NCBI GenBank assembly: GCA_020849095.1 | Contig: JADLGX010000320.1 | Location: forward strand, 1-62,776 | Length of the DNA stretch: 62,776 nt | Direction: 5' to 3' | DNA from: Candidatus Eiseniibacteriota bacterium | Lineage (GTDB): Bacteria; Eisenbacteria; RBG-16-71-46 | Part shown: piece after piece, positions 1,500-38,030 of the stretch | How the letters are laid out: each line of letters starts with the position of its first letter | How positions within the stretch are numbered: the stretch's first letter is position 1 | Translations under genes and position numbers: made by a program | The notes under the pieces: generated by a model | The model's database searches: none | Told to the model about the DNA's origin: nothing | The model's input: only the letters and a program-made list of their open reading frames with translations

Positions 1500-1507
1500 T
1501 CGTTGGC

Positions 1508-14408: not shown

Positions 14409-14410
14409 GA

Positions 14411-16765: not shown

Positions 16766-16779
16766 TTCGTAACGTGCTC

Positions 16780-16795
16780 TGCGAATGCCGTGCCA
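16780..16795 (-). promoter_or_regulatory. sigma54-type promoter candidate TGGCACG-GCAT-TCGCA
   Basis: Matches TGGCACG-N4-TTGCW at 7/7 and 4/5 with exact GG-N10-GC spacing. Predicted +1 near 16769, 4 nt before the helicase ATG at 16765. Confidence 0.5.
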
Positions 16796-16854
16796 CCACT
16801 TCGCCTCACGTCTCGGCGCGCAATGCCGGGACAAGCCGCCGCGGCCACACAGAA

Positions 16855-16864
16855 GGAACGTTCC
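16855..16864. promoter_or_regulatory. Perfect 10-bp palindrome GGAACGTTCC (possible activator site)
   Basis: Centred about 90 nt upstream of the predicted +1 of the 16780-16795 element. The GGAAC half-site also occurs in both elements flanking the activator gene. Confidence 0.35.
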
Positions 16865-16870
16865 CCCGGC

Positions 16871-16884
16871 AGAAGGAGCCTTCT
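16871..16884. promoter_or_regulatory. Palindrome AGAAGG-AG-CCTTCT (possible UAS)
   Basis: 6-bp arms. Same family as AGAAGA-GA-TCTTCT at 29499-29512. Centred about 108 nt upstream of the predicted +1. Confidence 0.4.
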
Positions 16885-16897
16885 TCTCGGGCGAACG

Positions 16898-17371
16898 CTA
16901 CCTATCCCACCCCGCTTCACGGCGGTACTTCCTGAGGAGGGCGCCGAGCCGCTTGAGGGTGGCGCTTGCGTCCTTCGGCAACGCGGTCTGATGGACCGCC
17001 AGGTTGCGAAGGCCAACCACCGCGCCCAGGACGGACCTTCGAGAGCGCGCATCCTCGACGCAGGCGCGGACGCTAGGGTCGAGCACCAGGCCTTCGGCAG
17101 CGTCCCCGATAGACTGTAGTAGTTGACCTGCGGTCGCCCTCCGAAGCGAGACGGTCCTCTTGCCGACCTGCGGCAGCAAGTCCGCTGGATCGCGGCGCGC
17201 GGCGAGCGCGACCGCGATCAACAGCTCCCGCAGAAAGTCGTCGAGCTTGGACCCAACCACGGTGATGCCTCCAATCAGGTGGCTCTTCGCCGTCGTGGGC
17301 GCGCGGGCGTCTTCCTTATCGATGCGCTCGAGAAGCGCAGCCGAAGTCTCGTCAAGCGGGTGCCTAGCCAT
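16898..17371 (-). CDS. Minimal HEPN-like (DUF4145-like) helical protein, 157 aa
   Basis: The ATG at 17369-17371 lies 1 nt after the kinase stop. Predicted helical. An R-x4-H motif, RNLAVH (nt 16991-17008), sits near the C-terminus, as in HEPN RNases. Confidence 0.5.
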   Translation of the reverse strand: MARHPLDETSAALLERIDKEDARAPTTAKSHLIGGITVVGSKLDDFLRELLIAVALAARRDPADLLPQVGKRTVSLRRATAGQLLQSIGDAAEGLVLDPSVRACVEDARSRRSVLGAVVGLRNLAVHQTALPKDASATLKRLGALLRKYRREAGWDR

Positions 17372-17372
17372 T

Positions 17373-19106: not shown

Positions 19107-19171
19107 CGCGAAACTCTATCGCAGTGCGCGACGGTAGGGGGCGTGAAGCGCGGCCCCAAGGAGGTCCGGGG

Positions 19172-20065
19172 CTAACTGCACTTGGCAGCTCGGCCCGGTA
19201 CGGCATGGCGGTCGACGAGCTTGAATGTCGCGGTGCCCGCGTCAAAGTCAGATCGCACTCGGTGCCAGATGTCCGGGTCGAGGAGCGACACGTCGGTCTG
19301 CTGCCCCGGCGGCTTCTCGTCTAATCCCCCATCGACACGGACGCCGCCAAGGTCCGTCACGATGTAGCGAGCGTGAAATTGATCGCCGTCCGGAAGTTCG
19401 TTCCAGCGAAACAGCTCAACCTTGATTCCCCTCGGGATGAGTCGCGCAAGCTGGCTGTCGCACGAACTGCGGAAGAAGCGCTCGTCTGCCCTCGCGGTAA
19501 GGTGGACTTCGCATCGCCGCAGCCCACGTCCGTCCCGCGCGGCTTCGGTCAGAAGCGCCTCAAAGACCTTTCGGAAGCGCGGTGTCTCCGGGCCGAAATA
19601 CGGGTCGACCAGCTGAAGCTCGCGCGAGCACCTGAGGAGAGGCGACAAGAGCCCCGCAAGCGCGCGTCCCGTCTGGGCCACTCTGCACTCTCGAGCGACT
19701 CTCCAAGGTTCGGCGTCGGGGTCTAGGTCATCACGATTGACCACCTTGGGATGCGCTCTCGGGTTATCGAGGGCCACAATCGCCTTGAACAGCTCGGCCT
19801 CGCGCTCGGTTTCGACCAGCCAATCCCCCGCTGAGAAGTCGCGGGCTACGTCGCACACGGCCAGTGCTGTTGCCCTTCGGAGCCGATCCACAATGCGGAG
19901 CCTCTGCACAGGCTTCCAAGGCGCGGCCTCGAGGACGAGGTCCTGCCACTTCCTCGGACATCTTGCGATGAAGCGCCCAGTGCGGGGACCACACTGATCC
20001 ACGATTCGGCCGAAGTTGGCCTCATCTGCGATCGCAGATGGATCAACGGCAAAAACCTCGAACAT
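19172..20065 (-). CDS. Partner protein of the ATPase, 297 aa, with a C-terminal HxR(x)4D motif (PLD-like?)
   Basis: The ATG at 20063-20065 shares one nt with the ATPase stop (TGATG). C-terminal LVDPYF ... FHARYIVTDLGGVRVDGGLD resembles an HKD motif with K replaced by R. Confidence 0.6.
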   Translation of the reverse strand: MFEVFAVDPSAIADEANFGRIVDQCGPRTGRFIARCPRKWQDLVLEAAPWKPVQRLRIVDRLRRATALAVCDVARDFSAGDWLVETEREAELFKAIVALDNPRAHPKVVNRDDLDPDAEPWRVARECRVAQTGRALAGLLSPLLRCSRELQLVDPYFGPETPRFRKVFEALLTEAARDGRGLRRCEVHLTARADERFFRSSCDSQLARLIPRGIKVELFRWNELPDGDQFHARYIVTDLGGVRVDGGLDEKPPGQQTDVSLLDPDIWHRVRSDFDAGTATFKLVDRHAVPGRAAKCS

Positions 20066-21723
20066 CAAAAGAGCTCCCGCGACCGCTCCTCGAAGAAGCC
20101 TTTCGGCCATTGGTCAATGAACTCGCCCTGATCGTCTACACGGAGCTGATGCACGATCGTACCACCCAGGCCGCGCTCCAAATAGACGACGGCAAGCTGA
20201 GCTGGGCGCAGGCCGGGGTGGCCTTCAGGTAGCTCGCCTCCTGCGGTTTCGCGGATTCGCCGGAGAAGTCGGAGGATGAGGTGCTCGCTGTGGGTCTCAA
20301 CGATGAAGCGGTGCGCCTTGCCCGGTTGAATTCCTGCAACCAGGAGATCCGCAATGTCCGCCTGAAGGCGAGGGTGAACGTGGACCTCGGGCTGCTCGAT
20401 CGTGATGGTCTGCTCGTCTGATGCAAGCACTTGCACGACGAACGGCAGGAGCTGACTGATCCCGAAACCCACGTCCGGCAGTGCAACCGAGGTTGCGGCC
20501 GATCGCTTCTTGTCTTGAAGCCGCACTTCGAACAGATCATTGGAGCGACTACCCACCGGTTCGATGGCAATGCGATATCCAACATCAAGGCGAGTGAGCC
20601 AGTCGTTCGTCTCTTCGACCAGCTTCGGCCGACGAAAGAGAAGGTCCGGAAGCAGGTTCCCCGAGTAGCCAACATCAGGCGGCGTCGTCCCGGTGAAGAT
20701 GTACAGGCGCTGGGGAGCTTTCCTATAGGGCCCCAGCGGAAAGAGACGCTCGAGCGCCATCTCCAACGACACCCCCGCTTCCATCAATGTGTCCGCAGCT
20801 TCGATGAAGTGCGTCCGTAGCGGCAATCTGGATCGCCGGTGGTACGTCGCGGCGGTCCGCTCGGGGTATTCCCCCCCCGCATCTGGACTCACGGCAAACG
20901 GGATGAATCCGTCCAACGCGACAACTCCGCCGTGCGATGCGGATCGCCTCCGCGCTGCGTACGCGGCGAGGGAGAACTCAGAGTTGTAGAACCTGATCGC
21001 TGCGTCAACGGATTCGACCGTGAACTCCTCGTCCGGAAACAGCCGCCCTTGCCGATCCGGGTGTTGTCGCGCGATCTCTTCTCGCATCGCTGCGAGTGAC
21101 TCCAGAATCTCCGTGCGCAGTTGAAGGGTTCGACTGTATTCAGCCTCCCAGTAGTGGTCGTCGGCTACGACCTCCGTACACACGGCACCGCGCGGTCTTC
21201 CTGGGCCCTTCCTATCCCGTCGCATGCCGTACGGTCCAAAGGGTGAGAAACGGCGACTGTGCTGTAGCTGTGCACCGTGCAGATCCTGCGGTTCGAACTG
21301 GGCGACTGATTCAAGTCGTTGCCCATCAAAGACACGAAAGCCCGCTAGAGCGACGTCACCTGCCCCTTTTTGCCGGAACGATACCTCCAGACCAATGGCC
21401 CGCCCGGTCTCACCTTCGTCGCGTGTGCGGAGCATCCTTGACGAGCCTCGCAAGTCGAGCCGAAGAGACAATGTCCGCTCGGCATCGTGGTCGTACAAGA
21501 GCTCGTGAAAGCTCCCAAGATCCACCAACCCGCCCTCCGCGCGCGGCAGGAGCAGCGCTCCGTGTTCACGGCTGAAGCGTGTTTGCTTCAGAAGGTTGAG
21601 CGCATTCAAGATCGAGCTCTTCCCCGCGCTGTTCTCGCCGTAGATGAGGGTGATGGGAGCGAAGTCCAAGCGCACCCTGTTGCCGAAGGCCTTGAAGTTC
21701 TCCAGCTCAATTGCGTGAATCAT
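20065..21723 (-). CDS. AAA_15/ABC-type ATPase with DUF3696-like C-terminus, 552 aa
   Basis: N-terminus MIHAIELENFKAFG...GENSAGKSS (Walker A). Walker B/D-loop region ITIEQPEVHVHP, then ETHSEHL. C-terminal tail EFIDQWPKGFFEE. GGAGG lies 6 nt before the ATG at 21721-21723. Confidence 0.75.
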   Translation of the reverse strand: MIHAIELENFKAFGNRVRLDFAPITLIYGENSAGKSSILNALNLLKQTRFSREHGALLLPRAEGGLVDLGSFHELLYDHDAERTLSLRLDLRGSSRMLRTRDEGETGRAIGLEVSFRQKGAGDVALAGFRVFDGQRLESVAQFEPQDLHGAQLQHSRRFSPFGPYGMRRDRKGPGRPRGAVCTEVVADDHYWEAEYSRTLQLRTEILESLAAMREEIARQHPDRQGRLFPDEEFTVESVDAAIRFYNSEFSLAAYAARRRSASHGGVVALDGFIPFAVSPDAGGEYPERTAATYHRRSRLPLRTHFIEAADTLMEAGVSLEMALERLFPLGPYRKAPQRLYIFTGTTPPDVGYSGNLLPDLLFRRPKLVEETNDWLTRLDVGYRIAIEPVGSRSNDLFEVRLQDKKRSAATSVALPDVGFGISQLLPFVVQVLASDEQTITIEQPEVHVHPRLQADIADLLVAGIQPGKAHRFIVETHSEHLILRLLRRIRETAGGELPEGHPGLRPAQLAVVYLERGLGGTIVHQLRVDDQGEFIDQWPKGFFEERSRELF

Positions 21724-21799
21724 GGTTGACCTCCGAGCCTCCTGTGCAAGCGTCGGGCCATGCGAGACAAGCACCAGTCCGATCGATGTTTGGCGGTCG

Positions 21800-21838
21800 G
21801 ATGCCCTTCAAGTTCTCCAGCTCGATGCGTGTGATCAT
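21800..21838 (-). pseudogene. Vestigial 5' end of an AAA ATPase gene ([13 protein letters not shown]...) coupled to the hsdS stop
   Basis: The ATG overlaps the hsdS stop (ATGA). 39 nt are about 77% identical to the start of the functional ATPase gene 115 nt downstream. The frame then degenerates. Confidence 0.45.
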
Positions 21839-23013
21839 GCTCGTCCCAGTTCCCCGCGAAACGCCTGCTGCGTGAGAGCGTCGAACAAGTCGGCCGCGAT
21901 CCTGTCGTGCGCTCTCTGCGTGGCTTCCACCTTCGCGCAACGCCCAGCGACCGTTTCCAGCGTGCGCTGAAGCGCGAGCGGGGGAACCGGTAGCGCCAAC
22001 TCGCGAATTCCCGGGCCACTGAAGTTTTGCTGCGCCGATTGCCGCGAGCGGCGCGCGATGAACGCCTGGACACGTTCACTGGCGATCACCATCCGCGCAT
22101 AGCGCGGCAGCACGCGCTTCTTCAGTTGCAGGCGAATAAAGTAGGCGCCCGCGACACACTCGGGCGCCTCTTCCTCGACGAGTGCCGTCTTGCCGACTGT
22201 CGCCCCGGTTCTTGCGAAAATGATCTCGCCCGGCTTGAGCGCGTACCGGGCACGGTCCGCCTCGGACATCGAGAGGCGGGGCATCGATTCGAAGTCCAGC
22301 GCCCCCCCCGCGCTGAGGTCAGTGATGCGCACGATGCGCACTCCGTCACTCGAGTACTTCTCGTTGTAGAAGCGAGGTCCGTACTCCATTTTCTGCAGCT
22401 CGGCGCCGAACGTTGACACCGGCCACCCCTTCGGATTCGTCACCGGGTCCCCGAACATCTCCAAGAACGCCGACCGCAGCAGCTCCTCGGTGAGCGCGAT
22501 GGCGTGCTTCCGCTTGCGCCGAACCGCGTCGGCATTGTCGAGGATGTCGGCGATGCGGCGCTGCTCGGGAAGCGGGGGCAGCGGCAGCTCCAGTGCCTCG
22601 AGGTCACGAGGGCTCAGACGTGGAAGATTTGCGCCGGCGCACCTGAGCACGGCCTCTTCGACCGTCTTGGGGTGACGCAGGAAATGGAACAGGAATCCGC
22701 GGTCAACCCGCGGGCCAGGAAGTATCGGCACAATGTCCGTGCTGCAGATGCCGTAGAAATCCGGGCGCGCGGTCTTCTTCAGGTAGGGTCGCAACTTCCC
22801 AAACAGGATGTGCTTCGGCCCAAAGCGAAACTTGTTGCTGGCCAGCACGCCCGATACCACGGGCGACATCCCGACGAAGTTTCCGTCACTGTCGATATGC
22901 TCAAGCCCGACGTAGTTCGTCCCCGTCGCGATGTCTCCGGGCAGAACAGCGTCGCGCTCGATGCTCGCGACGTCGTCAACACGCACGCGCTGCCAGGCGG
23001 CGCCGGTCGTCAC
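21835..23013 (-). CDS. hsdS: Type I restriction-modification specificity subunit
   Basis: Two target-recognition halves separated by the conserved [24 protein letters not shown] spacer. ATGA overlap with hsdM. Confidence 0.85.
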
Positions 23014-24512
23014 AACATCCCCTCCAGCGCCTTCAGGTCCTTCGCAATCTCCGCCTCCAGCGCCCGCAGCTTGCCGATGATCACCTTCGGCGACTCGTAC
23101 TTCACCTCTTCGTGCACTGTCTCCTTGTATCGGTTGATGGAGAGGTCGAAGTTCTTCTCCCGAATGTCAGCGACCGGCACCATGAAGTGCTTGGCCGTGC
23201 GGTCCGCGTCCTGCTTCGGGTTCCTTTTTCGCCAGCGCTCGAGCGCATCCGGCAGGTCGTTCTCCTTGACCGGGTCGCGCTTGTCGTCGAGCGAGAAACC
23301 GTCGGCGCCGACGTCGTGGAAGAAGACGTGATCCGTCTCGCCATTCTTCGTGAATACGAGGATGGCGGTCGACACGCCCGCGTACGGTCGGAACACGCCC
23401 GACGGGAGTGAGATGACAGCCTCGAGCTGGTTGTCGTCGACCAGCATCTTGCGGAGCGCGACGTGGGCTTTCGACGATCCGAAGAGAACGCCGTCAGGCA
23501 CGATGGTCGCGCTGCGGCCGCCCTTTTTAAGCATCCGCAGAATGAGCGCGACGAACAAGAGCTCCGTCTTCTTCGTCTTCACCTTCTGAGTGAGCGACGG
23601 GTGCACATCCTCGGCGTCGAGGCTCCCCTTGAACGGCGGGTTCGCCAGCACCACGTCGAAGCAGCCGCTGGCCTGCTTGGGGAAACGCTCCGGGAAGGAG
23701 TTCGAGAGCGTGTCCTGGTAGTGGATGTCGGGGTTGTCCACGCCATGGAGCATCAGGTTCATCGACGCGATACGGAGCATGGTGCTGTCGAAGTCGAAGC
23801 CATGGAACATGTCGTTCTGGATGTGGCTCCGGTGCTGCTCCAGCTTGTCGCCCGTGTAAACCCTCTCGCCGCTCTCGGCCTTGTAGGTACCCTTGGCGGA
23901 GCTGTGCTTCTCGAGCAAGTACAGCATTGTCCCAACAAGGAAGCCGGCCGTGCCGCACGCCGGATCGCCCACGGTCTCGGTCGGCTTCGGCTCGAGCATC
24001 TCGACCATGAAGCGGATGATGTGGCGTGGAGTCCGGAACTGTCCGTTGATGCCGGCCGTCGTCAGCTTGCTCAGCAAGTACTCGTAGAGGTCGCCCTTGG
24101 TGTCGCCCTCGGTGATGGGCAGGGCATCAATCCTGTTCACGGCGGAAACGAGCAGGCTCGGCCTCTGAATCATGAGCTGTGCGTCGGCCATGTACTCGCC
24201 GAAGGTCGTGCCGCCGTTGAGGCTGCGGAAGTGCGGGAACACCTTGTCGCGCACGATGCCGAGCATCTTCTCAGCCTTGAGGTGCCGGAAATGCGACCAG
24301 CGCAGATCCTGCTCCTTCGGGCCGAAGACGGGCTTGAACGGCTTCTTCGTCCGCGCGGCACGCGCCTCGTTGCGCGTCTCGGCGACGTCGAGCAAGCGCG
24401 CGAACATCAAGAACGAGATTTGCTCGATGACCGTCAGCGGATTGGTGATACCGCCGGTCCAGAACTCCTCCCAGAGCTTGTCGATGTCGTTCTTGAGCTT
24501 TCCAGTGATCAT
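23010..24512 (-). CDS. hsdM: Type I restriction-modification N6-adenine DNA methyltransferase
   Basis: HsdM-type N-terminus ([21 protein letters not shown]), AdoMet motif [10 protein letters not shown] and catalytic NPPF (VLANPPFKG). ATGA overlap with hsdR. Confidence 0.9.
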
Positions 24513-27500
24513 GCTTGCTTGCTCTCAGGGGGTGGGCTCGACGGGTCTGCCTTGCGCGGTTGGAACGCCTCGAGGATTCCGAGGAGCTCGTCGAGCTGAC
24601 CCTTCTCGGTGAACAGGCCATCGACACCGTTGGCGTGAAGGTCGGTGAAGGGAGGGTCGTAGAGGCGCTCGAGCTCGATGCCGCCGTTCTGTGCGATGTG
24701 ATTCTTCAGTAGCTGCAGAAACCTGAGCTGCTGGGCCGAAAGGTGCAGGTGCTTGTGGACGAAGCCAGTGAACGCGGCATCGACCGCTTCGGGATCGAGG
24801 CCCACGAGACCGCGAAGCGCGTCAGTCAGCGATTGCCTCGTCTCCGGCTGGATCAGGTGCTTGAGGTTCGCCTTGTCGTCGACCTGGAGCACCAGCTTCG
24901 CGAGTGCGTCCAGGTCCTCGTCCCGGACTGTCTTGCCGGCGCGAATGCGCTGGAGGGTGGGGTCATTCATGAAGTGCTCGCGCAGGACTCTTTCCACGCG
25001 ATGCCGGTACTCGATCAGATCCAGGCCATCGAGCGTGGGCGTGCGATCGTAGCTGTGCACCACTTGCTCTGCGACGTCGTACACCTTGGGTACGAGGCGA
25101 GAGGGATTCGTCTGCGCCTGGTACTTCATGATGCCGCGGAGCTCGGTTCGGATCTCTTCGAGCTTGGCGGCGGTCACGGTGGCCCAGAGCTCCTTGCTCT
25201 GGACCGCGCGAATGGCCTCGGCCTTCGCCTTGACCGGGTTCTGGTTCTTCATGAGCAGCGCGACCTCGGCTTCGACGGCAGCCTTCAGATCCGCCACCCT
25301 GGGCGACCCCTTGATCACCGCCTCCTCGAGGCGCGTCATGAGCAGATCGAACCGGTAGGCATCCTCGTCACCTCGGATGTTGCGCCACTGCATGAGCGGC
25401 GCGGCGATGGATAGCAAGTCTGCCTTGGTCGCTGCCGCGAACTGGGCGACGGTGTCCCGGTTGGACAGGAGCTCGAGCTCCCGCCGCCGGTCGCGCACGT
25501 CGATGCTCCTCGAGTCCATCGCGTCGCGGACGTCCCTGACCAGGAGGTCCACGGTTGACTGGAAGTCAGGCTCGCTCATGGCGTCGAGCGCCGCCTGAGC
25601 GACAGCCATGCGCGCTTCGAACAAGTGTTGAAGCAGGGACTTCTGGGGAGCCGGCTGCTTCTCCTGGTACTCCTCTTCGAAGAACCAGAAGTTCTTGCCG
25701 TGGTCGAAGATGAGGAACTCGGACTTGTCGTTGCCGGGACCAAACAGGTCTCGACATAGCCGGGTCCCGCGCCCAATCATCTGCCAGAACTTCGCCGGCG
25801 TCTTGACCGCCTTTGCGAAGACGAGGTTCACGACCTCGGGGACGTCGATGCCCGTGTCGAGCATGTCGACAGAGATGGCGATGACGGGCTCCGAGTCCTT
25901 GGTCTTGAAGTCGTCGATGAGCTGATCGGCCCGCGGTTCCTGGTGGTCGATGACTCGGCAGAAAGCGCCGCCGTACTGCGGGTACATCTCCGCGAAGAGC
26001 TCGGCGAGGTGGACTGCGTGCAAGTGACTCTTCGCGAAGACGATCGTCTTGCCGACGCGGCTGCCCGTGGCGTCGCGGATGCCCTCTTGCATCAAGCTCC
26101 GGAGGACGACACGGCTCGTGTCCTTGTTGAAGACATCGCGATCGAGTTGTGCGGGCGTGAATTCAACGCTGTCTGGCTGGTCTTCCTGCGCCTCCAGCTC
26201 CGTCTGCTGGTCCGCCGACATCTGCGAGTACCTGAACCCCTCCTCGCGGAACCGCGTCTGAAACTCGCGCACCCGGAACGGCACGAGGTACGGAGGAATC
26301 GAGCTCACCGCCTCCTCGTAGGTGAAGTTCGCTGTCGGGTCGTTGTGCTCGCACCCAAACAGCTTGAAGGTGTCTCGGTCGGCGTACCTGAGCGGCGTAG
26401 CCGTCAGGCCCACCTGGAACGCATCGAAGTACATCACCAGCTCGCGGTACTTCTTGTAGATGCTCCGGTGCGACTCGTCGAAGATGACTAGGTCGAAGAA
26501 CCCGACGTCGAACGTCTCGTAGCACTTCAGCATCGCTGGGTAAGTCGCGAGGTAGATGCGCTTGTCTCGGTCGGACGAGGTCGTGCTGTCGACTACCACT
26601 CGAGGCTCGTCCGGGAGGAACTCCTTGAAGACGTTGTTGGCTTGCTTGCGAAGCTCGCGCCGGTCGCAGAGGAAGAGAATGCGTTTGGCCCAACCCGCAC
26701 GCATGAGCAGATCGCAGAGCGACACGGCGACGCGAGTCTTGCCAGTGCCGGTTGCCTGGACCAGCAGCGCACGGCGAAACTTCTGCTCGAAGCGCTCGTT
26801 CACGCGCTTCATCGCCTCGAGCTGGTACATGCGCTCGGCGATGGTGATGTCCGGGGCCATGGTGGCCAGCGGTTTCTTGTTCTTTCGCTGGTGCAGGAGG
26901 TATTCGAGACTGTCTTTCGAGTAGAAGCCGTAGACCTTTCGCGGGGTGAACCCCTGCGAGTCGTCCCATACATAGATGTCGATGCCGTTGCTGTAGAAGA
27001 TGACCGGCCGCTGTCCGGTTTCTTTCTCGAGGCAAGTGGCGTAGATGCGTGCTTGTTCCTGACCGATGCGGGCGTCCTTGGCGGTCTTCTTCGCCTCGAC
27101 CACGGCCAACGGCTTGCCGTCATCGCCGTAGAGCACGTAGTCGGCATAACCTTCTCGCGACTCGGTGGGCATCGTCGAGAGCTGGATCTCTTGACCCACC
27201 TGATCGTTGCTCTTCCCGCCAGCGCCGACGTTCCAGCCCGCCTCGACCAGTGCTTGGTCGATGAGGCGGCGGCGCGTTGCCTCCTCGCTCAGATGGAGGA
27301 CGTTCGCCGCTTTCTGTCCCTCGCTGCGGAGCGCCTCGAGCTGTTCCTGGGTGTGTGCGACGAAATTCTCGGCCGCCTCGCGCTTCCGCCGTTCGTCTTC
27401 GAGGTCGGCGAGCACCTTCTGGAGTTGCGCGTCCTGCTGGGCCAGCTTCTCCAGGGCGTCCTTCTTCGCCTTCTGGAGCGCCGCGCTGTCGGTCGCTGCC

Positions 27501-27940
27501 GTCGCCGGAGGGTCTGAGTAAGCCGGGCACTGAGCGCGGTTGCCCTGATCGATGCGGAGGAAGACCCACTGCGCGATGTCGAAGGCGTCACGAAGCGCCT
27601 GGAGCGCGGCCTGCGCGCTCGGAGGGTCGTGGTGAGCAGCCTTGTTGCCTGCTTTGCGGATTGTGTGGAGCTTGCCGAGCACCACATCGGGGACGGCGGT
27701 CCGAAACGGCGTCTCGTTCAGGAGATCGAAGACGCTATCGGTGTACGGCCGTGGCAGTCGGTAGGTCTCGTAGATGATGGCGACGACGGTCTCCATGAAG
27801 GAGCGCAGCTTCACGAGCGCGCTTGCGGGGTCCGGACGCGCGTAGACCTCGGCGAACCCACCGAGGTCGGCGAGCTCGGGATGCCTCGGTCGCAGGAACT
27901 CGAAGTTCCTCGACTTCATCAGCGCGTCCTCGGGGAGCAT
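24509..27940 (-). CDS. hsdR: Type I restriction enzyme R subunit with N-terminal DUF4145/HEPN-like module and EcoEI-type C-terminal domain
   Basis: N-terminal NFEFL...[10 protein letters not shown], helicase motifs VQATGTGKT and DESH, long helical C-domain. The alternative start ATG 27919 (MKSRNFEFL) has a GAGGA 7 nt upstream. Confidence 0.85.
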
Positions 27941-27972
27941 GCTCGCCCCAGCAGCACGTTCCGTTCCATCAT
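27938..27972 (-). promoter_or_regulatory. 35-nt element ATGATGGAACGGAACGTGCTGCTGGGGCGAGCATG (sigma54-like TGGAAC-N5-GTGC) ending at the hsdR ATG
   Basis: GG-N10-GC spacing. It overlaps the activator's TGA stop. 27/35 identical, ungapped, to the element at 29563-29597 on the other strand. Confidence 0.45.
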
Positions 27973-29465
27973 TCCTTCACCCCGTACCTCGTGAGCCAGC
28001 CTTTGAGCGTTTGGTAGCTGGCGAGGCCGACCAACGATGCCGCCAGGGTCTTGTTGCCCTGGGCCTCCTGCATGGCGCGAGACAGGTAGTGGCGCGCCAC
28101 GTCCGCCATCAAGTCCGACAGGTTGAAACCGCCGCCCAAGGGGCGGCCGAGGACTTCGGGAGTCAACGACCTTGGCGCGGCGAGTAGCGCATCGCGCGCC
28201 TCGCCCTCATCGATGACCGCGCCCCTCGACCAGATGAACGCCCGCCGAAGGGTGGACTCGAGCTCCCGCACGTTGCCAGGCCAATCGTACCGGAGAAGAA
28301 GATTTCTTGCGCCGACAGAAACCTTCTTCTGGACGGCGCCGGGCCGGCTGGCCATCTCCGCGTTGAGCTTGTCGAGCAGCCTATCGAGCAGAAAACTAAC
28401 GTCGCCCTCGCGCTCCCTGAGCGGCGGCGTCTTGAGGACCAACACCGCCAGCCGAAAGTAGAGGTCTTCTCGGAATCTTCCTTCGCGCACCTCTTGGAGG
28501 AGGTTGCGGTTGGTCGCGGCGATGACACGCACGTCTACGGGCACGTCGGCCCGGCCGCCAATGGGCCGTACTCTTCGCTGCTGCAGAGCTCTCAGCAGCT
28601 TGGCCTGGTGCTCGACCGCGAGCTCACCGACTTCGTCCAGGAAGAGCGAGCCGCCGTCCGCTTGCTCGAAGAACCCCTTGTGGTCGCGGTCCGCGCCGGT
28701 GAAGGCGCCCCGGGTGTGCCCGAAGAACTGCGACTCGAAGAGCTCCTTTGGGATAGCGCCGCAGTTCACTTCGACGAAGGGCTTGCCCTTCCGCGGACTT
28801 TCCCCGTGAATGGCCTCGGCGAGCAACTGCTTGCCAGTGCCGGATTCACCTTCGATGAAGACGGACTCGGAGAACGGGGCGGCTTGCCGGGCACGGCGGA
28901 CCAAGCGCTTCATCACCTCGCTTCGGTGCAGAATATCACCGAATTTTGGCTCTTCCGGGCGAACACCGTCAGCAAGCTTCGCCAGGTCCGCGCTGGTCTG
29001 TTGGACGGCGGCCGGGATGAACTCCGCAGCCAGCTCGAACGGAACGTTGACCGTCGCGACGCCCTTCTCCCTCGAGGACTCTATGAGCTCCGCCCCGAAC
29101 CGGGTCTTGGCGACGATGATCCAGATCGCCGCCATCGCGGGGGTGCCGGGGCTGAGGTGGAAAGTGAGCCTGGTCTTGGCGCCGTGCTTCTCGAGCGTCC
29201 AGGCGACAGTGCTGCTCACCGCGCGGTAGATGTCGGCGTGGTCAGTGGGAGACGACAGCACATGTTGCTGAACGACCACTTCCGCGTCGGTCTGCTTCGC
29301 AACCCAACGCACGTACGGGTTGATCTGCTCTTTGGGGAAGTTGTTCAGCAGAACGACCTGGTCGAACTTGCGCGCCGCCAGGGCCTCCGCGATGGGGCCC
29401 GCGCCGCCACCCTCAGCGGCCTTGAGATCGGTCAGGCCGATCCACGCCAGGAGCACACGAGCCAT
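27969..29465 (-). CDS. CARF-like (RtcR-type) sensor domain fused to a sigma54-dependent AAA+ activator and Fis-type HTH, 498 aa
   Basis: GESGTGKQ Walker A, GAFTGA loop (HTRGAFTGA), RFREDLYFRL, C-terminal HTH. The N-domain MARVLLAWIGLTD...TFHLSPGTPAMAAIWIIV resembles the RtcR CARF pattern. Start set at ATG 29463-29465; the 151-aa upstream extension in the track was rejected. Confidence 0.75.
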   Translation of the reverse strand: MARVLLAWIGLTDLKAAEGGGAGPIAEALAARKFDQVVLLNNFPKEQINPYVRWVAKQTDAEVVVQQHVLSSPTDHADIYRAVSSTVAWTLEKHGAKTRLTFHLSPGTPAMAAIWIIVAKTRFGAELIESSREKGVATVNVPFELAAEFIPAAVQQTSADLAKLADGVRPEEPKFGDILHRSEVMKRLVRRARQAAPFSESVFIEGESGTGKQLLAEAIHGESPRKGKPFVEVNCGAIPKELFESQFFGHTRGAFTGADRDHKGFFEQADGGSLFLDEVGELAVEHQAKLLRALQQRRVRPIGGRADVPVDVRVIAATNRNLLQEVREGRFREDLYFRLAVLVLKTPPLREREGDVSFLLDRLLDKLNAEMASRPGAVQKKVSVGARNLLLRYDWPGNVRELESTLRRAFIWSRGAVIDEGEARDALLAAPRSLTPEVLGRPLGGGFNLSDLMADVARHYLSRAMQEAQGNKTLAASLVGLASYQTLKGWLTRYGVKE

Positions 29466-29498
29466 CGGCCCTGGGAGGGTAACAACTCCTCTGGCGCC

Positions 29499-29512
29499 AG
29501 AAGAGATCTTCT
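29499..29512. promoter_or_regulatory. Palindrome AGAAGA-GA-TCTTCT (possible UAS) in the divergent intergenic region
   Basis: 6-bp arms, extended imperfectly to CCAGAAGAGATCTTCTTGG. Centred about 88 nt upstream of the predicted +1 of the 29563-29597 element. Confidence 0.4.
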
Positions 29513-29562
29513 TGGGCGGGGGGATTCGACCCATGGAAGAACCGAATGATCCGGCGACTGCG

Positions 29563-29597
29563 ATGATGGAACGGTTCGTGAAGAAGGGACGTGCATG
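29563..29597 (+). promoter_or_regulatory. 35-nt element ATGATGGAACGGTTCGTGAAGAAGGGACGTGCATG ending at the ATG of the coiled-coil nuclease gene
   Basis: Twin of 27938-27972. -24-like TGGAAC; the -12 position reads GTGA (GA instead of the canonical GC). Same 28-nt distance from TGG to ATG. Confidence 0.4.
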
Positions 29598-31298
29598 ACC
29601 ACGCAAGCTCCCCTCACGGTTCTCGTCGGCGTCGAAGCCGACGTCGTCGAAGCGCATATCCGAGACCGCCGCACCGACGCGGTGTCCGTTTTTGAGCCAC
29701 TGAACGAAGCCCAGCGGGTGGGTCTTGTCACCGACGCCTGGACCGTCGGCCTTCGCGCTCTCATGAACGCCTACAAGCAAGCCGAGGAAGCTCGCTTGCA
29801 GGACATCGGTCGCACGCTGAGCGAGGACCTGGAGCGGCAGCTCGCCGCGTACGTCGAGCGGCAGCAGGCGACGTTCGTCCAGGTGCTGGCGCGGTACTTC
29901 GACCCCCGCGACGGGCAAGTTGTCGCTCGGCTCGAGGGATTCCTCCGCGACGGTGGCGAGCTCGCACAGACCATGGACCAGTTCCTGGCGCCAGGGCGGG
30001 GCGCTCTGGCACAGACGCTGGCCCGCGAGCTCGGAGAGAACAGCTTGCTGCTCAAGCGCCTGAGCCCGACGGACAGCGAGGGAGTGATCTTTTTGCTGGA
30101 GTCCAAGCTGCGCGAGGCGCTGGCTTCAAGCCAGGTGGAGGTTGCCCGTGCGCTCGATCCGAGCGCCGAAGACGGTGCCGTCGCCAGGTTCCTGCGCGCT
30201 CTCCGCCAGGAGCTCGAGAAGGCCGACAGCGACCGGAGCAAGCAGCTCGCGTTGGCCACCAAGGCATTGGACGCCAACGACGAGACGTCGCTCTTGAGCC
30301 GAATGATGCGCGAGGTTTCCGACGCCCGAACCGCGTTCGTCACTTCGATGAACCCGGACCTGCCCGACTCCCCGATGGCGGTGCTCAAGACGGCGCTCTC
30401 GACCCTGCTCGAGCAGCACGTCCAATCGCAGCAGGAAGCCATGGAGCGCATGCAGGAGCGCCAGCAGAAGTTCGAGGCGGACGTCCGCGAGGCACTCGTC
30501 CGTATCGAAGAGCGCAAGCGCGGCGAGCTCAAGTCACCTCGAGGCGGCATTGCCTTCGAGGACGCGGTAACCCGCTTCGTCCAGCGGTCCGTTCAAGGCG
30601 CGCCCGTCACCGTTGACGCGACCGGCAATACCGTTGGCGCCAAGGCGGGCTGCAAGGTCGGCGACCAGGTGCTCCGCTTCACGGCCGAGAGCGCGTACTC
30701 CGGGTGCGCGCTCGTGGTAGAGGCCAAACGAGAGGCCGGGTACACGGTGACCCAGGCGCTGGCGGAGCTCGAGCTGGCTCGCGGTAACCGCTCGGCGGGA
30801 ACGGGTCTGTTCGTAATGTCCAAGAGCCACGCGCCGAAGGGGTTCCCGAACTTCGCGCGTTACGGCAGCGACATCCTCGTCGTCTGGGACGACGAGGACG
30901 AAGGGACTGATCCCTACCTTCACGCAGCAGTCGTCTTGGGCCTCGCACTGGCGAGCCAGCAGAGGCGTAGTGAGGACGAGGGCGACATCAGCGCCCTCGC
31001 CGACATCGAACATCGCATCCAGAAAGAGGTCGACCGTCTGGGCAGAATGCGGGGTCTGGCCGAGTCCATCCAGGGCGACGCCGAGAAGCTGGCTGACGAA
31101 ATCCGGAAGGGTGGCAAAGGCCTGGACCTGCTGCTCCGCAAAGCGAAGTCCACGCTGAAGGCGCTGAACGTGGAGTTGACCGAAGCCGAGGAAGCAAGGG
31201 CCGAGCCGGTCGGGCTGGCGGCGGGGTCGCTGGTGGAGGCGAGGGGGGCGCTGGCTGGTGGCGACGACGGCACGGGCGACGCAGACGCGCGACACTGA
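29595..31298 (+). CDS. Coiled-coil protein with C-terminal PD-(D/E)XK-like domain (RmuC/DUF2130-like), 567 aa
   Basis: About 330 aa of heptad-like Q/E/A/L/R-rich sequence, then SPRGGIAFEDAV...KVGDQVLRF...CALVVEAKRE (D ... E-x-K) ...GLFVMSK. Confidence 0.65.
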   Translation: MTTQAPLTVLVGVEADVVEAHIRDRRTDAVSVFEPLNEAQRVGLVTDAWTVGLRALMNAYKQAEEARLQDIGRTLSEDLERQLAAYVERQQATFVQVLARYFDPRDGQVVARLEGFLRDGGELAQTMDQFLAPGRGALAQTLARELGENSLLLKRLSPTDSEGVIFLLESKLREALASSQVEVARALDPSAEDGAVARFLRALRQELEKADSDRSKQLALATKALDANDETSLLSRMMREVSDARTAFVTSMNPDLPDSPMAVLKTALSTLLEQHVQSQQEAMERMQERQQKFEADVREALVRIEERKRGELKSPRGGIAFEDAVTRFVQRSVQGAPVTVDATGNTVGAKAGCKVGDQVLRFTAESAYSGCALVVEAKREAGYTVTQALAELELARGNRSAGTGLFVMSKSHAPKGFPNFARYGSDILVVWDDEDEGTDPYLHAAVVLGLALASQQRRSEDEGDISALADIEHRIQKEVDRLGRMRGLAESIQGDAEKLADEIRKGGKGLDLLLRKAKSTLKALNVELTEAEEARAEPVGLAAGSLVEARGALAGGDDGTGDADARH

Positions 31299-31314
31299 CA
31301 CCCAGGGATTCGGC

Positions 31315-32175
31315 GTGAACACGAAGCAACACTTCCTCCCGGCGGGCTTTCTCAAGAACTTCTCAGCTAGTCCATCGGCAGGCCGCGAGGCTCCCGTCTG
31401 GGCGTTCGACGGGCAGCGGTCCTTCCAGACCGCAGTGAAGAACGTCTGCGTTGAGGGCGACTTCTACACCTTCGACCGCGAGCAGGAGTTCAACGTGCAC
31501 GGGGAGCTGGAGACCGGGCTGTTCGACGTGCTGCCAAAGCTACTCGACGGTGATCGGACAGACCGTGTGCTCGTTTCGATGCTGTTCCACGCGTGTTACT
31601 TGCACATTCGGGGACGCGAGTTCGAGAACGCGTCGGGCGTGGCCCGATTGAACGCAATCCAGACGCACGGAGTGACGTTCATCTGCCGGCACGTTCTTCG
31701 GATGAGCCTGGAGGAGCAGCCGCTCGGCCGAGCGACTGCGCGTCTCATGGTCAGTACCGCTCTCACGGACTTCCACTTCGAAGTCGTTCGAGCCGACACA
31801 TCCTCCGGTGACACGGACTTGTACTGCTCCGATAACCCGGTGGCGATCTTCACACGGGACGGGAGGCCGGATCTCTTGGTGTTGCCGCTAACCGCGACCC
31901 AGCTCTTCGTGGCAGCACGCGCATCTGCGTTCGAGACCCGTGGGAACAAGTACGACGAGACCGACGCCGCGTGGGCGAACAGCGCCCAGTGCTACTTCAC
32001 TCACCGCCAAGTGTTCTCGCGTCACGAGATGCCCGAACAGGACAGGATGCAAGCCGCGGCGCTGATGCGGAGAAGACCGAAGACCAACTCTGCGCTCGAA
32101 CCGGATTCGCTTACGGTCACGCCGTCCAGCATCCCGAAGCCCCTTCCCTCTTTTCTGGTAGCGCGGGTCGAATGA
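31315..32175 (+). CDS. DUF4238-like protein, 286 aa
   Basis: The N-terminal KQHFLPAGFLKNFS matches the H-[YF]-[LIV]-P-x-x-[YF]-L-x-x-F hallmark of DUF4238, as I recall it. GTG 31315 lies 6 nt after AGGGA and 16 nt after the upstream stop; the track start 31258 overlaps the upstream gene. Confidence 0.55.
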   Translation: MNTKQHFLPAGFLKNFSASPSAGREAPVWAFDGQRSFQTAVKNVCVEGDFYTFDREQEFNVHGELETGLFDVLPKLLDGDRTDRVLVSMLFHACYLHIRGREFENASGVARLNAIQTHGVTFICRHVLRMSLEEQPLGRATARLMVSTALTDFHFEVVRADTSSGDTDLYCSDNPVAIFTRDGRPDLLVLPLTATQLFVAARASAFETRGNKYDETDAAWANSAQCYFTHRQVFSRHEMPEQDRMQAAALMRRRPKTNSALEPDSLTVTPSSIPKPLPSFLVARVE

Positions 32176-36272: not shown

Positions 36273-36891
36273 GCTGGTCGCCGACGATGCCGACGCCCTC
36301 CGAGATGCCTTGCGTGACGACGCCGGGTGTCTCGGGGCCGCGCTCGGCGTGTCCGCCGTCCAGCTTGAGGAGCTTGCGCGACGCGACGACGTGGTCGACC
36401 GGTTTCGGCGTCTGGTTGTTCGTGCGCGGCACCGGGAAGCTGCGCTCCGGGATGACGGGCGGAGTCGGCGAGCGCTCGCTGCAGCTGAGCGGCTCGTAGC
36501 CGGCGCCCGCTGGTCGGATGGCGGGGTCGAGCTCGAGCCGCAGGTGCTGCTTGGCGACCTCCTGGCCGACACCGCAAGACCGTGGCTGGGCCTGTTGGTC
36601 GACGGCAGCGACGTCGTGGTCAGTCGGTCTCGTCTGCGGCGCGCGGCCCTGGCGCTCCGGCCTTTCGGGGATGTGCGAGCGTTCGCGGACAGCCAGGACC
36701 TCCGACTTCGCTGGCGTGGCGGTCGCGGCGGATTGAACTTCACCTCCCAGGCCGCGCATGTCCACGACCACGCGCTGGTCCTGCGTGTCGTGCTGGACCG
36801 GCCAGTTTCGCAGCCGGTGGAGCGATGTCGGCCACGGCCGCCTGAGCGCCAGAGCTGGCTCACGGACGTGCTCGCAGACGTCATCGGCTGA
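36244..36891 (+). CDS. Hypothetical protein, 215 aa; has a partial paralogue at the right window edge
   Basis: ATG 36244 (MASATTRLRELV). Its nt 36644-36771 recur inverted at 62649-62776. Confidence 0.55.
   Translation: MASATTRLRELVADDADALRDALRDDAGCLGAALGVSAVQLEELARRDDVVDRFRRLVVRARHREAALRDDGRSRRALAAAERLVAGARWSDGGVELEPQVLLGDLLADTARPWLGLLVDGSDVVVSRSRLRRAALALRPFGDVRAFADSQDLRLRWRGGRGGLNFTSQAAHVHDHALVLRVVLDRPVSQPVERCRPRPPERQSWLTDVLADVIG
36644..36771. repeat. 128-bp segment repeated in inverted orientation at 62649-62776 (127/128 identical)
   Basis: Direct comparison of the reverse complement. The single mismatch is T versus C in CCGACTTCGCTGG. Confidence 0.85.
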
Positions 36892-36953: not shown

Positions 36954-38030
36954 ATGAACGCATCCATTCAACAACCCGAGCCGGGGCTCCCGCCCCCGCT
37001 CACCACCACGCCCGACATGACTGCCGTGTGGTCTGACGTCGAGACCGACTTCGACACGGCCGCCGAGATGTTCGTGGCGCGCCACCGAACCGACGGGGCG
37101 GCTTCCGATCATCCGGTCACTGACCTGCGGGTCTGGGGCGTCAAGCCGCACGACGGTCACTTCGCGCTCCAGCCCTTGCTGCAACACCGTGATCCGATCT
37201 TGCTGCGCCACAACGCGCTCCAGAACCTGTGCACTCGCCTGAACGTTCCGGTCGAGTTCTTGCGGCGACTGCCGGGACCGCTCCAGCTCACGATCGTGAA
37301 TTGGGCGCTCGGCTCAGTCGATCGACCGATGCCTGCAACGCTTCGGCTGCGAGGAACAGAAGCCGCCGCGCTGGTCAGCGACCGGTACGCCGCGCTCGAC
37401 GCCGACGAGTTGATCACGACCCTGCGGTCGGTGCTGGCTCAGCACGGGATGCTCGGCGAGGTTCGGGTCAGGGCCGTCGCGACTGGACTGACCGACGCGC
37501 TCCGGATCACGTTTCCGGGACGTGCGGTCGAGCCGAAGGTCGGCGACATCACGCACGCCGGTCTCGACATCTCGACCAGTTCGTTCGGTCGGTCCGCGCT
37601 TCACGTGCGTGGCCTGTTGTTCAGACTGGTCTGCACGAACGGCCTGCGCGTTCCCCAACGGATGGGTGAGTACTCGGCCCGGCACGTCGGTGAATCGGGG
37701 CGGCTGCGTGAGTTCCTGGCTGATGCAGTCCCGACCGTGCTCACGCACTCGAGCGGCCTGATGGACGCTTGGAGGCGTTCGGTCAACGTGCAAGTCGAGA
37801 GGCTCGCCGAGCTCATCGAGTCGATGCGCGAGCTCACGGCCGGTGAGCGCGAGGGCGTCGAACGCGAGGTCACGGCGGATGCAGGCCTGACCGAGCTGCC
37901 CGAGAGGACCAGCGCGTACACGCTCGTCAACGCCATCACGGCCACGGCCCGAGCCGCCGAGCCCGCGCGTCGACTCGAGCTCGAGGGTCTGGCCGGCCAA
38001 CTGCTGGACCGACACGTGAGGGCATCGTGA
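36954..38030 (+). CDS. DUF932 family protein (phage/plasmid-associated)
   Basis: Central GLDISTSSFGRSALHVRGLLFRLVCTNGL segment with the CTNG motif typical of DUF932. Confidence 0.65.
   Translation: MNASIQQPEPGLPPPLTTTPDMTAVWSDVETDFDTAAEMFVARHRTDGAASDHPVTDLRVWGVKPHDGHFALQPLLQHRDPILLRHNALQNLCTRLNVPVEFLRRLPGPLQLTIVNWALGSVDRPMPATLRLRGTEAAALVSDRYAALDADELITTLRSVLAQHGMLGEVRVRAVATGLTDALRITFPGRAVEPKVGDITHAGLDISTSSFGRSALHVRGLLFRLVCTNGLRVPQRMGEYSARHVGESGRLREFLADAVPTVLTHSSGLMDAWRRSVNVQVERLAELIESMRELTAGEREGVEREVTADAGLTELPERTSAYTLVNAITATARAAEPARRLELEGLAGQLLDRHVRAS

Follow-up and report, generated by a model that had tools for sequence, protein, structure and literature searches.

Probable outward-facing sigma-54 promoters beside a CARF-AAA+-HTH activator gene lying between a type I restriction operon and a putative nuclease gene

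An activator gene between restriction and putative nuclease genes

In the window (the whole 62,776-nt stretch of DNA analysed), a minus-strand gene at 27969..29465 encodes a 498-aa CARF-AAA+-HTH sigma-54 enhancer-binding protein. Its translation matches the PADLOC model RtcR_PspF2 CARF_AAA_HTH over its full length (E=1.7e-187; residues 3-497 align to positions 2-481 of the 481-position model), is recognised by Pfam Sigma54_activat (E=2e-67), and contains the GAFTGA loop. Assignment of the protein as an RtcR orthologue was rejected, as it scores 315 bits against the NCBIfam RtcR equivalog, whose cut-off is 650, and its gene is neighboured by hsdRMS and a nuclease gene rather than by rtcBA. A -10-like hexamer, TACCCT (29476..29481, minus strand), lies 10 nt upstream of the activator ATG; the family pattern, TAnnCT, is kept in a 10-locus alignment 6-10 nt ahead of that codon, and the activator mRNA may be leaderless.

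Downstream of the activator on the same strand are hsdR (24509..27940), encoding a type I restriction subunit with an N-terminal DUF4145, and, in the same operon, hsdM (23010-24512) and hsdS (21835-23013). The co-directional array continues beyond HsdR/M/S with an AAA_15/21 ATPase, a Ser/Thr kinase, a ResIII helicase, a YjiT-family protein and a DEAD+MZB helicase, the last two of which resemble Druantia type III. Facing away on the plus strand, a gene at 29595..31298 encodes a 567-aa protein with long helices and a PD-(D/E)xK-like domain, and a DUF4238 gene (31258..32175, plus strand) follows it. While searches of the 567-aa protein against Pfam, NCBIfam, PADLOC and PDB sequences returned no match, its AlphaFold2 model (mean pLDDT 69.5) gave McrC, MspJI, PspGI and BamHI as best Foldseek matches (E ~0.02, probability up to 0.97), and residues D357, E376 and K378 are invariant. 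The modelled fold thus bears a weak but consistent resemblance to PD-(D/E)xK nucleases. The gene order 567-aa gene, activator, hsdR, hsdM, hsdS is common to the homologous loci L001, L002, L095, L096 and L097, and in about 50 loci the gene next after the activator is hsdR-like; among the loci compared, the DUF4238 gene is kept only in L001.

Twin elements and the left promoter

The activator gene is bracketed by two 35-nt elements in inverted orientation. The left element (27938..27972), which reads ATGATGGAACGGAACGTGCTGCTGGGGCGAGCATG on the minus strand from 27972 to 27938, takes in the activator stop codon and a predicted sigma-54 promoter (P_L), and hsdR has its first ATG there; the right element (29563..29597), ATGATGGAACGGTTCGTGAAGAAGGGACGTGCATG on the plus strand, combines a sigma-54-type promoter (P_R) with the ATG that opens the 567-aa gene. 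As the earlier note had described, the twins align without gaps and are identical at 27 of 35 positions, among them an uninterrupted run of 12 and the closing GCATG, the T of a TGG lies 28 nt ahead of the A of the ATG in both, and the left copy overlaps the activator stop, TGA at 27969-27971; the intergenic spaces, put there at about 30 and 130 nt, measure 28 nt and 129 nt. The similarity ends at both edges of the 35 nt. The rough judgement that a shared 12-mer is hardly due to chance was borne out by counting: with one mismatch allowed, the 12-mer occurs in the window only at the two twin sites, against an expectation of 0.22, and the twins rank second among the window's 774,390 pairs of ATG-ending 35-mers, with 24 of 32 positions outside the ATG identical. 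The sole higher-ranked pair is an exact duplicate from an unrelated 128-nt repeat, and approximately 3e-6 of random 35-mer pairs attain 24 matches.

The canonical sigma-54 promoter consensus is TGGCACG-N4-TTGCW. Both twins contain a -24 box, TGG(A/C)ACG, and a -12 box, TG(C/A), at the exact spacing GG-N10-G(C/A). The core of P_L, TGGAACGGAACGTGCT (27953..27968, minus strand), begins at the base right after the activator stop codon and resembles the canonical consensus in the GG-N10-GC arrangement, with the two doublets exactly 10 nt apart, and in 10 of the 12 consensus positions. Scored with a matrix built from 46 other loci, P_L reaches 14.7 bits, more than any other site in the window (125 kb with both strands counted), and six matches of at least 12 bits were observed where shuffled sequence gave an expectation of 1.15. 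The flavour of the promoter in this clade is TGGAACGG-N2-CGTGC.

The site is conserved well beyond this clade. Counting as a site at least 10 of the 12 consensus positions within 60 nt of the activator stop codon, 48 of 75 homologous loci from many phyla contain one, versus 0.56% of control windows, and TGG directly follows the stop codon in 28 loci. Cultivable carriers include Sorangium cellulosum So ce26 (L007), Polyangium sp. 15x6 (L005) and Minicystis rosea (L008). L096 and L097 are independent loci of 21 kb; in each, the post-stop site is the top match, with 18.0 bits, and the divergent site ranks second in L096 (12.9 bits) and third in L097 (14.9 bits), there below a 16.4-bit antisense match within a disrupted hsdR. 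The earlier note had also raised the case of flanking genes that stay adjacent in the absence of the element; most loci keep it, and the few that lack the downstream site generally have a canonical divergent one. Of the two readings proposed in that note, outward sigma-54 promoters or the ends of a cassette, the first is strongly supported by this family-wide conservation. The twins are therefore very probably outward-facing sigma-54 (-24/-12) core promoters beside the gene of a CARF-AAA+-HTH enhancer-binding protein, which most likely switches on the type I restriction-modification operon on one side and the coiled-coil nuclease gene on the other.

The analysis establishes the sequences and how well they agree with the consensus, how far they are conserved, what the activator is and which genes adjoin it; sigma-54 binding, activation through CARF, the transcription start, the start codon in use and the upstream sites bound are inferred. 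Sigma-54 RNA polymerase would bind and wait at both promoters as a closed complex until the AAA+ ring is activated by a ligand or partner sensed through the CARF domain. The activator would bind inverted repeats of the AGAAG/CTTCT type, its GAFTGA loop would contact sigma-54, and ATP hydrolysis would open the promoter. P_L would then drive hsdR-hsdM-hsdS, and probably further downstream defence genes, while P_R would drive the divergent gene for the coiled-coil PD-(D/E)xK protein together with the DUF4238 gene.

The right promoter and the start codons

The core of P_R, TGGAACGGTTCGTGAA (29567..29582, plus strand), has an intact -24 box and spacing and differs from the canonical consensus in having A rather than C at -12, where it reads GTGAA; it is therefore filed as a variant, with the GG doublet and GA in place of GC, and not as a canonical sigma-54 promoter. 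The earlier note had taken this GA as weakening the promoter reading. The mismatch is real and, with the nearly invariant C missing at -12, counts against the promoter reading, but the TGAA variant is kept in 10 of the 13 loci with the 567-aa gene. On the comparative sequence evidence, the GA is a conserved variant of the divergent promoter.

One alternative is that only the left copy works. The right copy would then be a relic, either decayed or independent of the activator, with transcription of the 567-aa gene starting from some other promoter within the 129-nt spacer. Characterised sigma-54 promoters nearly always have the C of the -12 GC, P_R scores below P_L (12.9 bits with the 46-locus matrix, rank 5 in the window), and a Shine-Dalgarno-like AAGGGA lies 5 nt ahead of the ATG, where it would be missing from any sigma-54 transcript. 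Decay is nevertheless difficult to reconcile with the retention of the -24 box, the spacing and the TGAA in those 10 of 13 loci, where the spacer around them has diverged, with TGCA at the homologous place in the more distant orthologous loci L067 and L068, and with the recurrence of TGA(A/T) in the divergent sites of unrelated clades (L017, L018, L020, L054 and L070). The spacer moreover contains neither a sigma-70-like site nor another conserved block, and a conserved palindrome sits at a typical enhancer distance, approximately 95 nt. We consider a relic unlikely.

The ATG of either twin comes 13 nt past the -12 base. Of the 26 loci with a long hsdR, 25 have an in-frame ATG at a distance of 11-14 nt downstream of the -12 C. 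The terminal GCATG belongs to the design. Unlike in the canonical arrangement, the start codon here sits at the predicted transcription start (at +3 if transcription starts exactly 12 nt from the -12 C), and therefore the induced hsdR and 567-aa transcripts may be leaderless or nearly so. The earlier note had placed the first ATG of hsdR in the left twin, which is correct for the ATG at 27940, at the predicted transcription start; however, a second in-frame ATG at 27919 (MKSRNFEFL), 21 nt downstream with a Shine-Dalgarno-like GAGGA between the two, is the start conserved at the protein level across the family. G-rich runs between the -12 box and the ATG, GGGGCGAGCATG and AAGGGACGTGCATG, resemble Shine-Dalgarno sequences, and since they would be absent from sigma-54 transcripts they hint at additional upstream starts. 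For P_L this could be read-through from the activator gene; for P_R no source of an upstream start was found.

The same runs, lying 5-6 nt before the ATG in both copies, could be taken to mean that the twins are translation-initiation or 5'-UTR elements (a ribosome-binding site with its start codon and an RNA-level operator) on transcripts that start further upstream, and the left copy would indeed lie inside any read-through transcript from the activator gene, because a terminator scan found no terminator between that gene and hsdR. Across phyla, however, the positions conserved in the sequence logo are the -24 and -12 boxes and not the G-run, which in many loci is just 1-4 nt from the ATG; the two copies have no structure in common, and an Rfam scan of the region gave no match. 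We regard this explanation as very improbable. Sigma-70 and terminator scans of the region returned nothing relevant.

Least probable of all, and barely credible, is the second reading of the earlier note, in which the regulator gene arrived on a mobile cassette of 1.66 kb with the twins as its terminal inverted repeats. In its favour, the copies are inverted and bracket a single gene, the promoter travels with the activator gene ahead of differing downstream genes, and L008 has a degenerate site at the stop codon plus a second site 84 nt downstream, before a different hsdR, which suggests module exchange. Against it, the twins agree only at the ATG and at positions of the promoter consensus, the identity stops exactly at 35 nt, the outer flanks differ (CTCCCCGAGG versus ACCACGCAAG) with no flanking or target-site duplication, the activator is the only gene inside, with no transposase or recombinase, and the left site of distant homologues is plain canonical TGGCACG-N4-TTGCW. 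The divergence of the flanking genes also keeps pace with that of the activator (identities for activator, hsdR and 567-aa protein of 86%, 92% and 83% in L001 and of 79%, 82% and 75% in L003), and left-right similarity within a locus is barely above that between loci (20.1 versus 19.1 of 36 positions; p=0.04, marginal and confounded by relatedness). The twins are a known kind of control element and not the ends of a mobile element.

Candidate activator-binding sites, internal promoters and known systems

Three candidate activator-binding sites were located. The first, R-UAS (29486..29515), consists of the inverted repeats TTCTG-N4-CAGAAG-N4-TCTTCT approximately 95 nt from the predicted P_R start, where it overlaps the activator gene's own -35 region; it is kept at the same place in 9 clade loci and resembles both other candidate sites. 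The TTCTG-N4-CAGAA palindrome is found only beside the activator start codon. The second, int-UAS (CAGAAGAAGGTTTCTGTCGGCGCAAGAAATCTTCTTCTC; 28293..28331, minus strand), lies within the activator coding sequence about 372 nt upstream of the predicted P_L start and is the candidate nearest to P_L. Of 486 codon columns, just 3 (TCT, GCA and CTT) keep A or T as third base in 10 or more of 14 loci, and these fall in a stretch of 7 codons at int-UAS. Local alignments of int-UAS with the remaining two candidates scored above all 500 shuffles. The third, hel-UAS (CGCCCGAGAAGAAGGCTCCTTCTGCCGGGGGAACGTTCCTTCT; 16851..16893, minus strand), is approximately 105 nt upstream of the helicase start. The roughly 350 nt upstream of P_L, which include the distance of about 80-150 nt at which an activator-binding site would be expected, contain no candidate; this counts against the promoter reading. 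Third-codon-position conservation over the last 135 activator codons revealed no embedded element near P_L. Matches to TTCTG-N6-CAGAA near P_L were discarded as coding-sequence coincidences, the correct spacing being N4, and a scan for GAAG-Nx-CTTC palindromes proved non-specific, with 48 matches that fell mostly in coding sequence.

Within the array, a candidate internal sigma-54 promoter, TGGCACGGCATTCGCA (16780..16795, minus strand), lies 15 nt upstream of an in-frame ATG (16765) of the ResIII helicase gene. It is the second-ranked match in the window (13.4 bits with the 46-locus matrix), and a GG-N10-G(C/A) site is kept at its place in the homologous loci L083 and L084. A weaker candidate, TGGCCCGACGCTTGCA (21745..21760, minus strand; 12.3 bits with the same matrix), lies 21 nt upstream of the ATPase ATG (21723) with GGAGG between, and no matching upstream binding site was found for it. 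As no internal sigma-54 promoters were found within 10 kb after hsdS in L095-L097, the candidates in this window are not general. A broader and tentative possibility, which we hold to be less probable than its converse, is that the CARF activator is the master switch of a multi-system defence island, acting through several sigma-54 promoters (P_L, P_R and the candidates at 16795 and 21760), each with AGAAG/CTTCT-type sites, one of them within the activator coding sequence. Start codons would then lie at +1 to +3, leaving the induced transcripts leaderless, and a second in-frame start with a Shine-Dalgarno sequence would serve basal read-through. If so, one restriction enzyme would have two modes of expression.

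Restriction-modification systems are usually treated as constitutive, and sigma-54 promoters are silent until activated. Here a type I system with hsdR as its first gene, a nuclease gene and probably other defence modules appear to be wired to a ligand-sensing CARF activator by way of such promoters.

RtcR-like CARF sigma-54 activators have been described at the head of defence 'superoperons', where they are predicted to switch on downstream genes via an upstream activating sequence, and internal 'RtcR-independent' promoters are expected, with promoters not mapped in that work (Bell et al., eLife 2024, PMC11090510). The present locus is alike in having a CARF-ATPase-HTH activator at the 5' end of a long co-directional array. 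Coiled-coil nuclease tandems (CoCoNuTs) are a subclass of Type IV restriction systems (PMC11090510), and none was identified in this window. With that work, RtcR-like activators at the head of defence superoperons had already been described in 2024, and what is new here is the promoter architecture, with one core promoter abutting the activator stop codon and one divergent, the candidate binding sites, one of which lies in the activator coding sequence, and the possible internal sigma-54 promoters of the operon; a literature search found no report of these promoters. The map is concrete and testable for the superoperons predicted in 2024, and the same promoter architecture is found across many phyla.

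The rtcR-rtcBA unit of E. coli and Salmonella likewise has a CARF-AAA+-HTH activator controlling an adjacent sigma-54 promoter, divergent like P_R, but its targets are RNA repair genes rather than restriction and nuclease genes, and it differs from the present locus, where a second promoter lies directly downstream of the regulator gene. The pspF-pspABCDE unit is a divergent sigma-54 unit. So is myxobacterial pexR-ahpC, in which pexR is proposed to be made from a leaderless mRNA (PMC12754779). Both share with this locus an activator divergent from a sigma-54 promoter, their binding sites overlap the activator's sigma-70-type promoter as the candidate R-UAS would here, and the leaderless pexR mRNA has a parallel in the TAnnCT box 6-10 nt before the ATG of the activator described here. 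Unlike these two units, this locus has a CARF sensor, sigma-54 promoters facing outward on both sides and target genes that are apparently leaderless. For sigma-54 promoter biology, the conserved GA variant at -12 and a start codon placed where transcription is predicted to begin add two small but testable points.

Twin elements bracketing a CARF activator gene

The earlier note described two 35-nt elements in inverted orientation, the left copy at 27938-27972 (- strand) and the right copy at 29563-29597 (+ strand), on either side of an activator gene. Both coordinates and sequences were verified, as were the ungapped identity of 27/35 and the overlap of the left copy with the TGA stop codon of the activator, and the intergenic spaces, put at about 30 and 130 nt, were measured at 28 and 129 nt. 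Similarity stops sharply at either end of the 35 nt. The 12-mer ATGATGGAACGG, with at most one mismatch, occurs in the window only at the two sites (0.22 occurrences expected), and the pair ranks second among the 774,390 pairs of ATG-ending 35-mers in the whole window, the sole better-ranked pair being an exact duplicate within an unrelated 128-nt repeat. The observation of twin elements is thus confirmed.

The bracketed gene (27969-29465, - strand) encodes a 498-aa protein that matches the PADLOC RtcR_PspF2 CARF_AAA_HTH model over its full length (E=1.7e-187) and contains a Pfam sigma-54 interaction domain (E=2e-67) and a GAFTGA loop. Its assignment as an RtcR orthologue was rejected, as it scored 315 bits against the NCBIfam equivalog cut-off of 650. 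A conserved -10-like TAnnCT box lies 6-10 nt before the activator ATG (29466-29481, - strand), and no Shine-Dalgarno sequence was found at normal spacing upstream of this ATG. The activator mRNA may be leaderless; the closeness of the box to the ATG parallels pexR of myxobacteria, for which a leaderless mRNA has been proposed (PMC12754779).

On the same strand, the activator gene is followed by hsdR (with an N-terminal DUF4145), hsdM and hsdS, and then, at 3502-21774, by an AAA_15/21 ATPase gene, an ORF of 312 aa and a Ser/Thr kinase gene. Also in this stretch are genes for a ResIII helicase that has a YgjP-like metallopeptidase domain, a 1127-aa YjiT-family protein and a 2077-aa DEAD+MZB helicase, as well as an ORF of 373 aa. 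The YjiT-family protein and DEAD+MZB helicase resemble Druantia type III, and the co-directional array spans ~26 kb of this Candidatus Eisenbacteria metagenome-assembled genome. The divergent gene beyond the right copy encodes a 567-aa protein for which no family match was found. Its AlphaFold2 model (mean pLDDT 69.5) consists of long helices and an alpha/beta domain whose best structural matches are McrC, MspJI, PspGI and BamHI (E ~0.02, probability up to 0.97), and residues D357, E376 and K378 are invariant. The name "coiled-coil nuclease" used in the earlier note is thus a reasonable one, if weakly supported.

Sigma-54 sites in homologous loci

The twins had been read either as outward-facing sigma-54 promoters or as terminal inverted repeats of a 1.66-kb regulator cassette. 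The order 567-aa gene, activator, hsdR, hsdM, hsdS is kept in the close homologues L001, L002/L095, L096 and L097 (activator identity to the window 86% for L001 and 79% for L002/L095), where the -24 box, -12 box and ATG are conserved in both elements and the intervening positions vary. A scan with a CARF-domain-only alignment, covering one genome per species, gave 80 loci, which belong to Myxococcota, Desulfobacterota, Acidobacteriota, Gammaproteobacteria, Planctomycetota, Latescibacterota and other phyla, with an hsdR-like gene after the activator in about 50 and the 567-aa gene divergent from it in 12. Sites matching at least 10 of the 12 positions of TGGCACG-N4-TTGCW no more than 60 nt from the activator stop codon were present in 48 of the 75 loci with a full-length activator, compared to 0.56% of control windows, and in 28 of those loci TGG starts directly after the stop codon. 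Beyond the clade of the window, the site follows the textbook consensus (for example, TGA followed by TGGCACGGGCATTGCT), while the Polyangia-like and Eisenbacteria clade has the flavour TGGAACG-N4-xTGCT.

When a weight matrix trained on 46 of the loci, a set that included neither the window nor L001, was run over both strands of the whole window, the left copy ranked first (14.7 bits) and the right copy fifth (12.9 bits), with six matches of at least 12 bits observed versus 1.15 in shuffles. Two 13.0-bit matches inside ORFs, at 45981 (+; TGGCACGACCCGTGCC) and 32476 (-; GGGCACGGACGATGCA), may reflect chance or intragenic sigma-54 sites. The post-stop site was also the top match in 21 kb of L096 and L097 (18.0 bits each), with the divergent site second in L096 (12.9 bits) and third in L097 (14.9 bits), where it was outranked also by a 16.4-bit antisense match within a disrupted hsdR. 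The hsdR of L097 is split in the gene calls into two overlapping ORFs (12178-14963), with a ~660-nt gap after the activator stop; its restriction subunit is probably disrupted, although the promoter is intact. Given the sites in homologous loci, the first rank of the left copy and the GAFTGA activator, the promoter reading held up, and both copies are very probably sigma-54 promoters.

GA in place of GC at -12 of the right copy had been taken to weaken this reading, but it proves to be conserved. The divergent site has xTGAA at -12 in 10 of 13 loci with the 567-aa gene, TGGA in L013 and TGCA in L067 and L068, the most distant orthologous loci. In unrelated clades, too, divergent sites carry TGA(A/T) (L017, L018, L020, L054 and L070), as against only 2 of 51 downstream sites. 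The GA is not a random defect; its conservation and this recurrence make a conserved -12 variant of a sigma-54 promoter the best reading of the right copy. That only the left copy works and the right is a relic is unlikely, and an RNA-level or translation-initiation role for the twins is highly improbable.

Scarcely any credence is left for the twins being inverted repeats of a mobile cassette. The promoter does move with the activator gene, ahead of differing downstream genes, and L008 (Minicystis rosea) has a two-site arrangement with a different hsdR downstream. However, the copies are identical only at promoter positions and in the ATG, their outer flanks bear no relation to each other, no recombinase lies inside, the left site in distant loci is a plain sigma-54 consensus, and divergence of the flanking genes runs parallel to that of the activator. 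Left-right likeness is barely higher within than between loci (20.1 versus 19.1 of 36, p=0.04), and thus neither gene conversion nor recent duplication is needed to explain the similarity. In L008 a degenerate site, TGGAACGGGCAACGCG, abuts the activator stop codon, and a fresh second site, TGATGGCACTCCCCGTGCA (TGATGGCAC...GTGCA), lies 84 nt further downstream; the hsdR after it is only about 30% identical to that of the window. This locus suggests modular exchange or a replaced downstream module.

Sigma-54 promoters of this sort belong to a known kind of system, as RtcR-like CARF sigma-54 activators heading defence superoperons with HsdRMS, a Ser/Thr kinase and Druantia III have been described, with activation predicted to proceed via an upstream activating sequence (Bell et al., eLife 2024, PMC11090510). 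On our reading, that paper does not locate promoters, and it expects internal RtcR-independent ones. The details added are a promoter adjoining the regulator's stop codon, the conserved -12 GA variant, a start codon located where transcription is predicted to begin and a candidate binding site embedded in coding sequence.

Start codons and candidate activator-binding sites

The ATG of each copy has its A 14 nt past the -12 base (13 nt in between), which places the ATG at +3 if transcription begins precisely 12 nt beyond the -12 C. An in-frame ATG lies 11-14 nt after this C (mode 13) in 25 of 26 loci with a long hsdR, and a second in-frame ATG, preceded by a GAGG-like motif, follows 4-8 codons on and opens a conserved MKSxNFEFL. 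The same layout recurs in another downstream gene family (L016, L044, L055, L069, L071 and L080; ATGs at 15-16 nt and 34 nt), and in divergent 567-aa genes the ATG is 13-16 nt after the -12 base. On the simplest reading of these spacings, the sigma-54 transcripts would be leaderless or carry a 1-3 nt leader. As no terminator was found between the activator gene and hsdR, read-through into hsdR is conceivable; we infer a scheme in which hsdR may have two starts, the second, Shine-Dalgarno-preceded one serving other transcripts such as activator-gene read-through. Such read-through RNAs might also use G-rich runs just before the first ATG as Shine-Dalgarno sequences.

A candidate activator-binding site at 29486-29515, the palindrome TTCTG-N4-CAGAA followed by TCTTCT, is found 33-37 nt upstream of the activator ATG in nine loci of the clade. 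It lies ~95 nt from the predicted start of the right promoter and overlaps the activator's own -35 region, fitting what is a classic arrangement for divergent activation and autoregulation. Nothing comparable was found within ~350 nt of the left promoter. A second candidate (28293-28331) is inside the activator coding sequence, where only 3 of 486 codon columns keep a third-position A/T in at least 10 of 14 loci; all three (TCT, GCA and CTT) fall within 7 codons, in genes with 84% GC at third positions. The third (16851-16893) precedes by ~105 nt another strong sigma-54 match, TGGCACGGCATTCGCA at 16795, located 15 nt before the in-frame ATG of the ResIII helicase. Every pairwise local alignment of the three candidates beats 499-500 of 500 shuffles, their common core being CGCC..AGAAGA(A)G-N2-5-CTTCTG, and in the helicase homologues L083 and L084 the upstream region retains a GG-N10-G(C/A) site together with an AGAAG...CTTCT inverted repeat.

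A fourth, weaker candidate promoter at 21760 precedes the ATPase gene. No internal sigma-54 promoters were found within 10 kb after hsdS in L095-L097, and judging from these sequences the window's internal candidates are not general. The N-terminal coding sequence of the ATPase (MIHAIELENFK, ATG 21723; 21690-21724) has an out-of-frame copy 115 nt upstream, at 21838 (21805-21839; 23/32 bases), overlapping the hsdS stop codon. The 21760 site lies between the two, an arrangement that suggests past recombination or insertion.

Island and mobile-element context

A tRNA-Ser(tga) gene is located at 253-338. Its last 30 nt, ACCAGGGGTTCGAATCCCTTCTCCTCCGCT, are directly repeated at 62476-62505, which gives nearly the whole 62-kb window the look of a genomic island inserted into tRNA-Ser; an integrase was not located. 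A 128-nt inverted repeat (36644-36771 and 62649-62776, 99% complementary), whose second arm reaches the contig end, may represent insertion-sequence ends or a duplicated gene start. Mobile-element genes neighbour the module in the window (DUF932, 36954-38030), in L095 (a relaxase, 1615-3501) and in L096 (Rad52, RadC, DUF932 and an IS66 transposase, 815-6884), and the module seems to be carried by integrative or conjugative elements.
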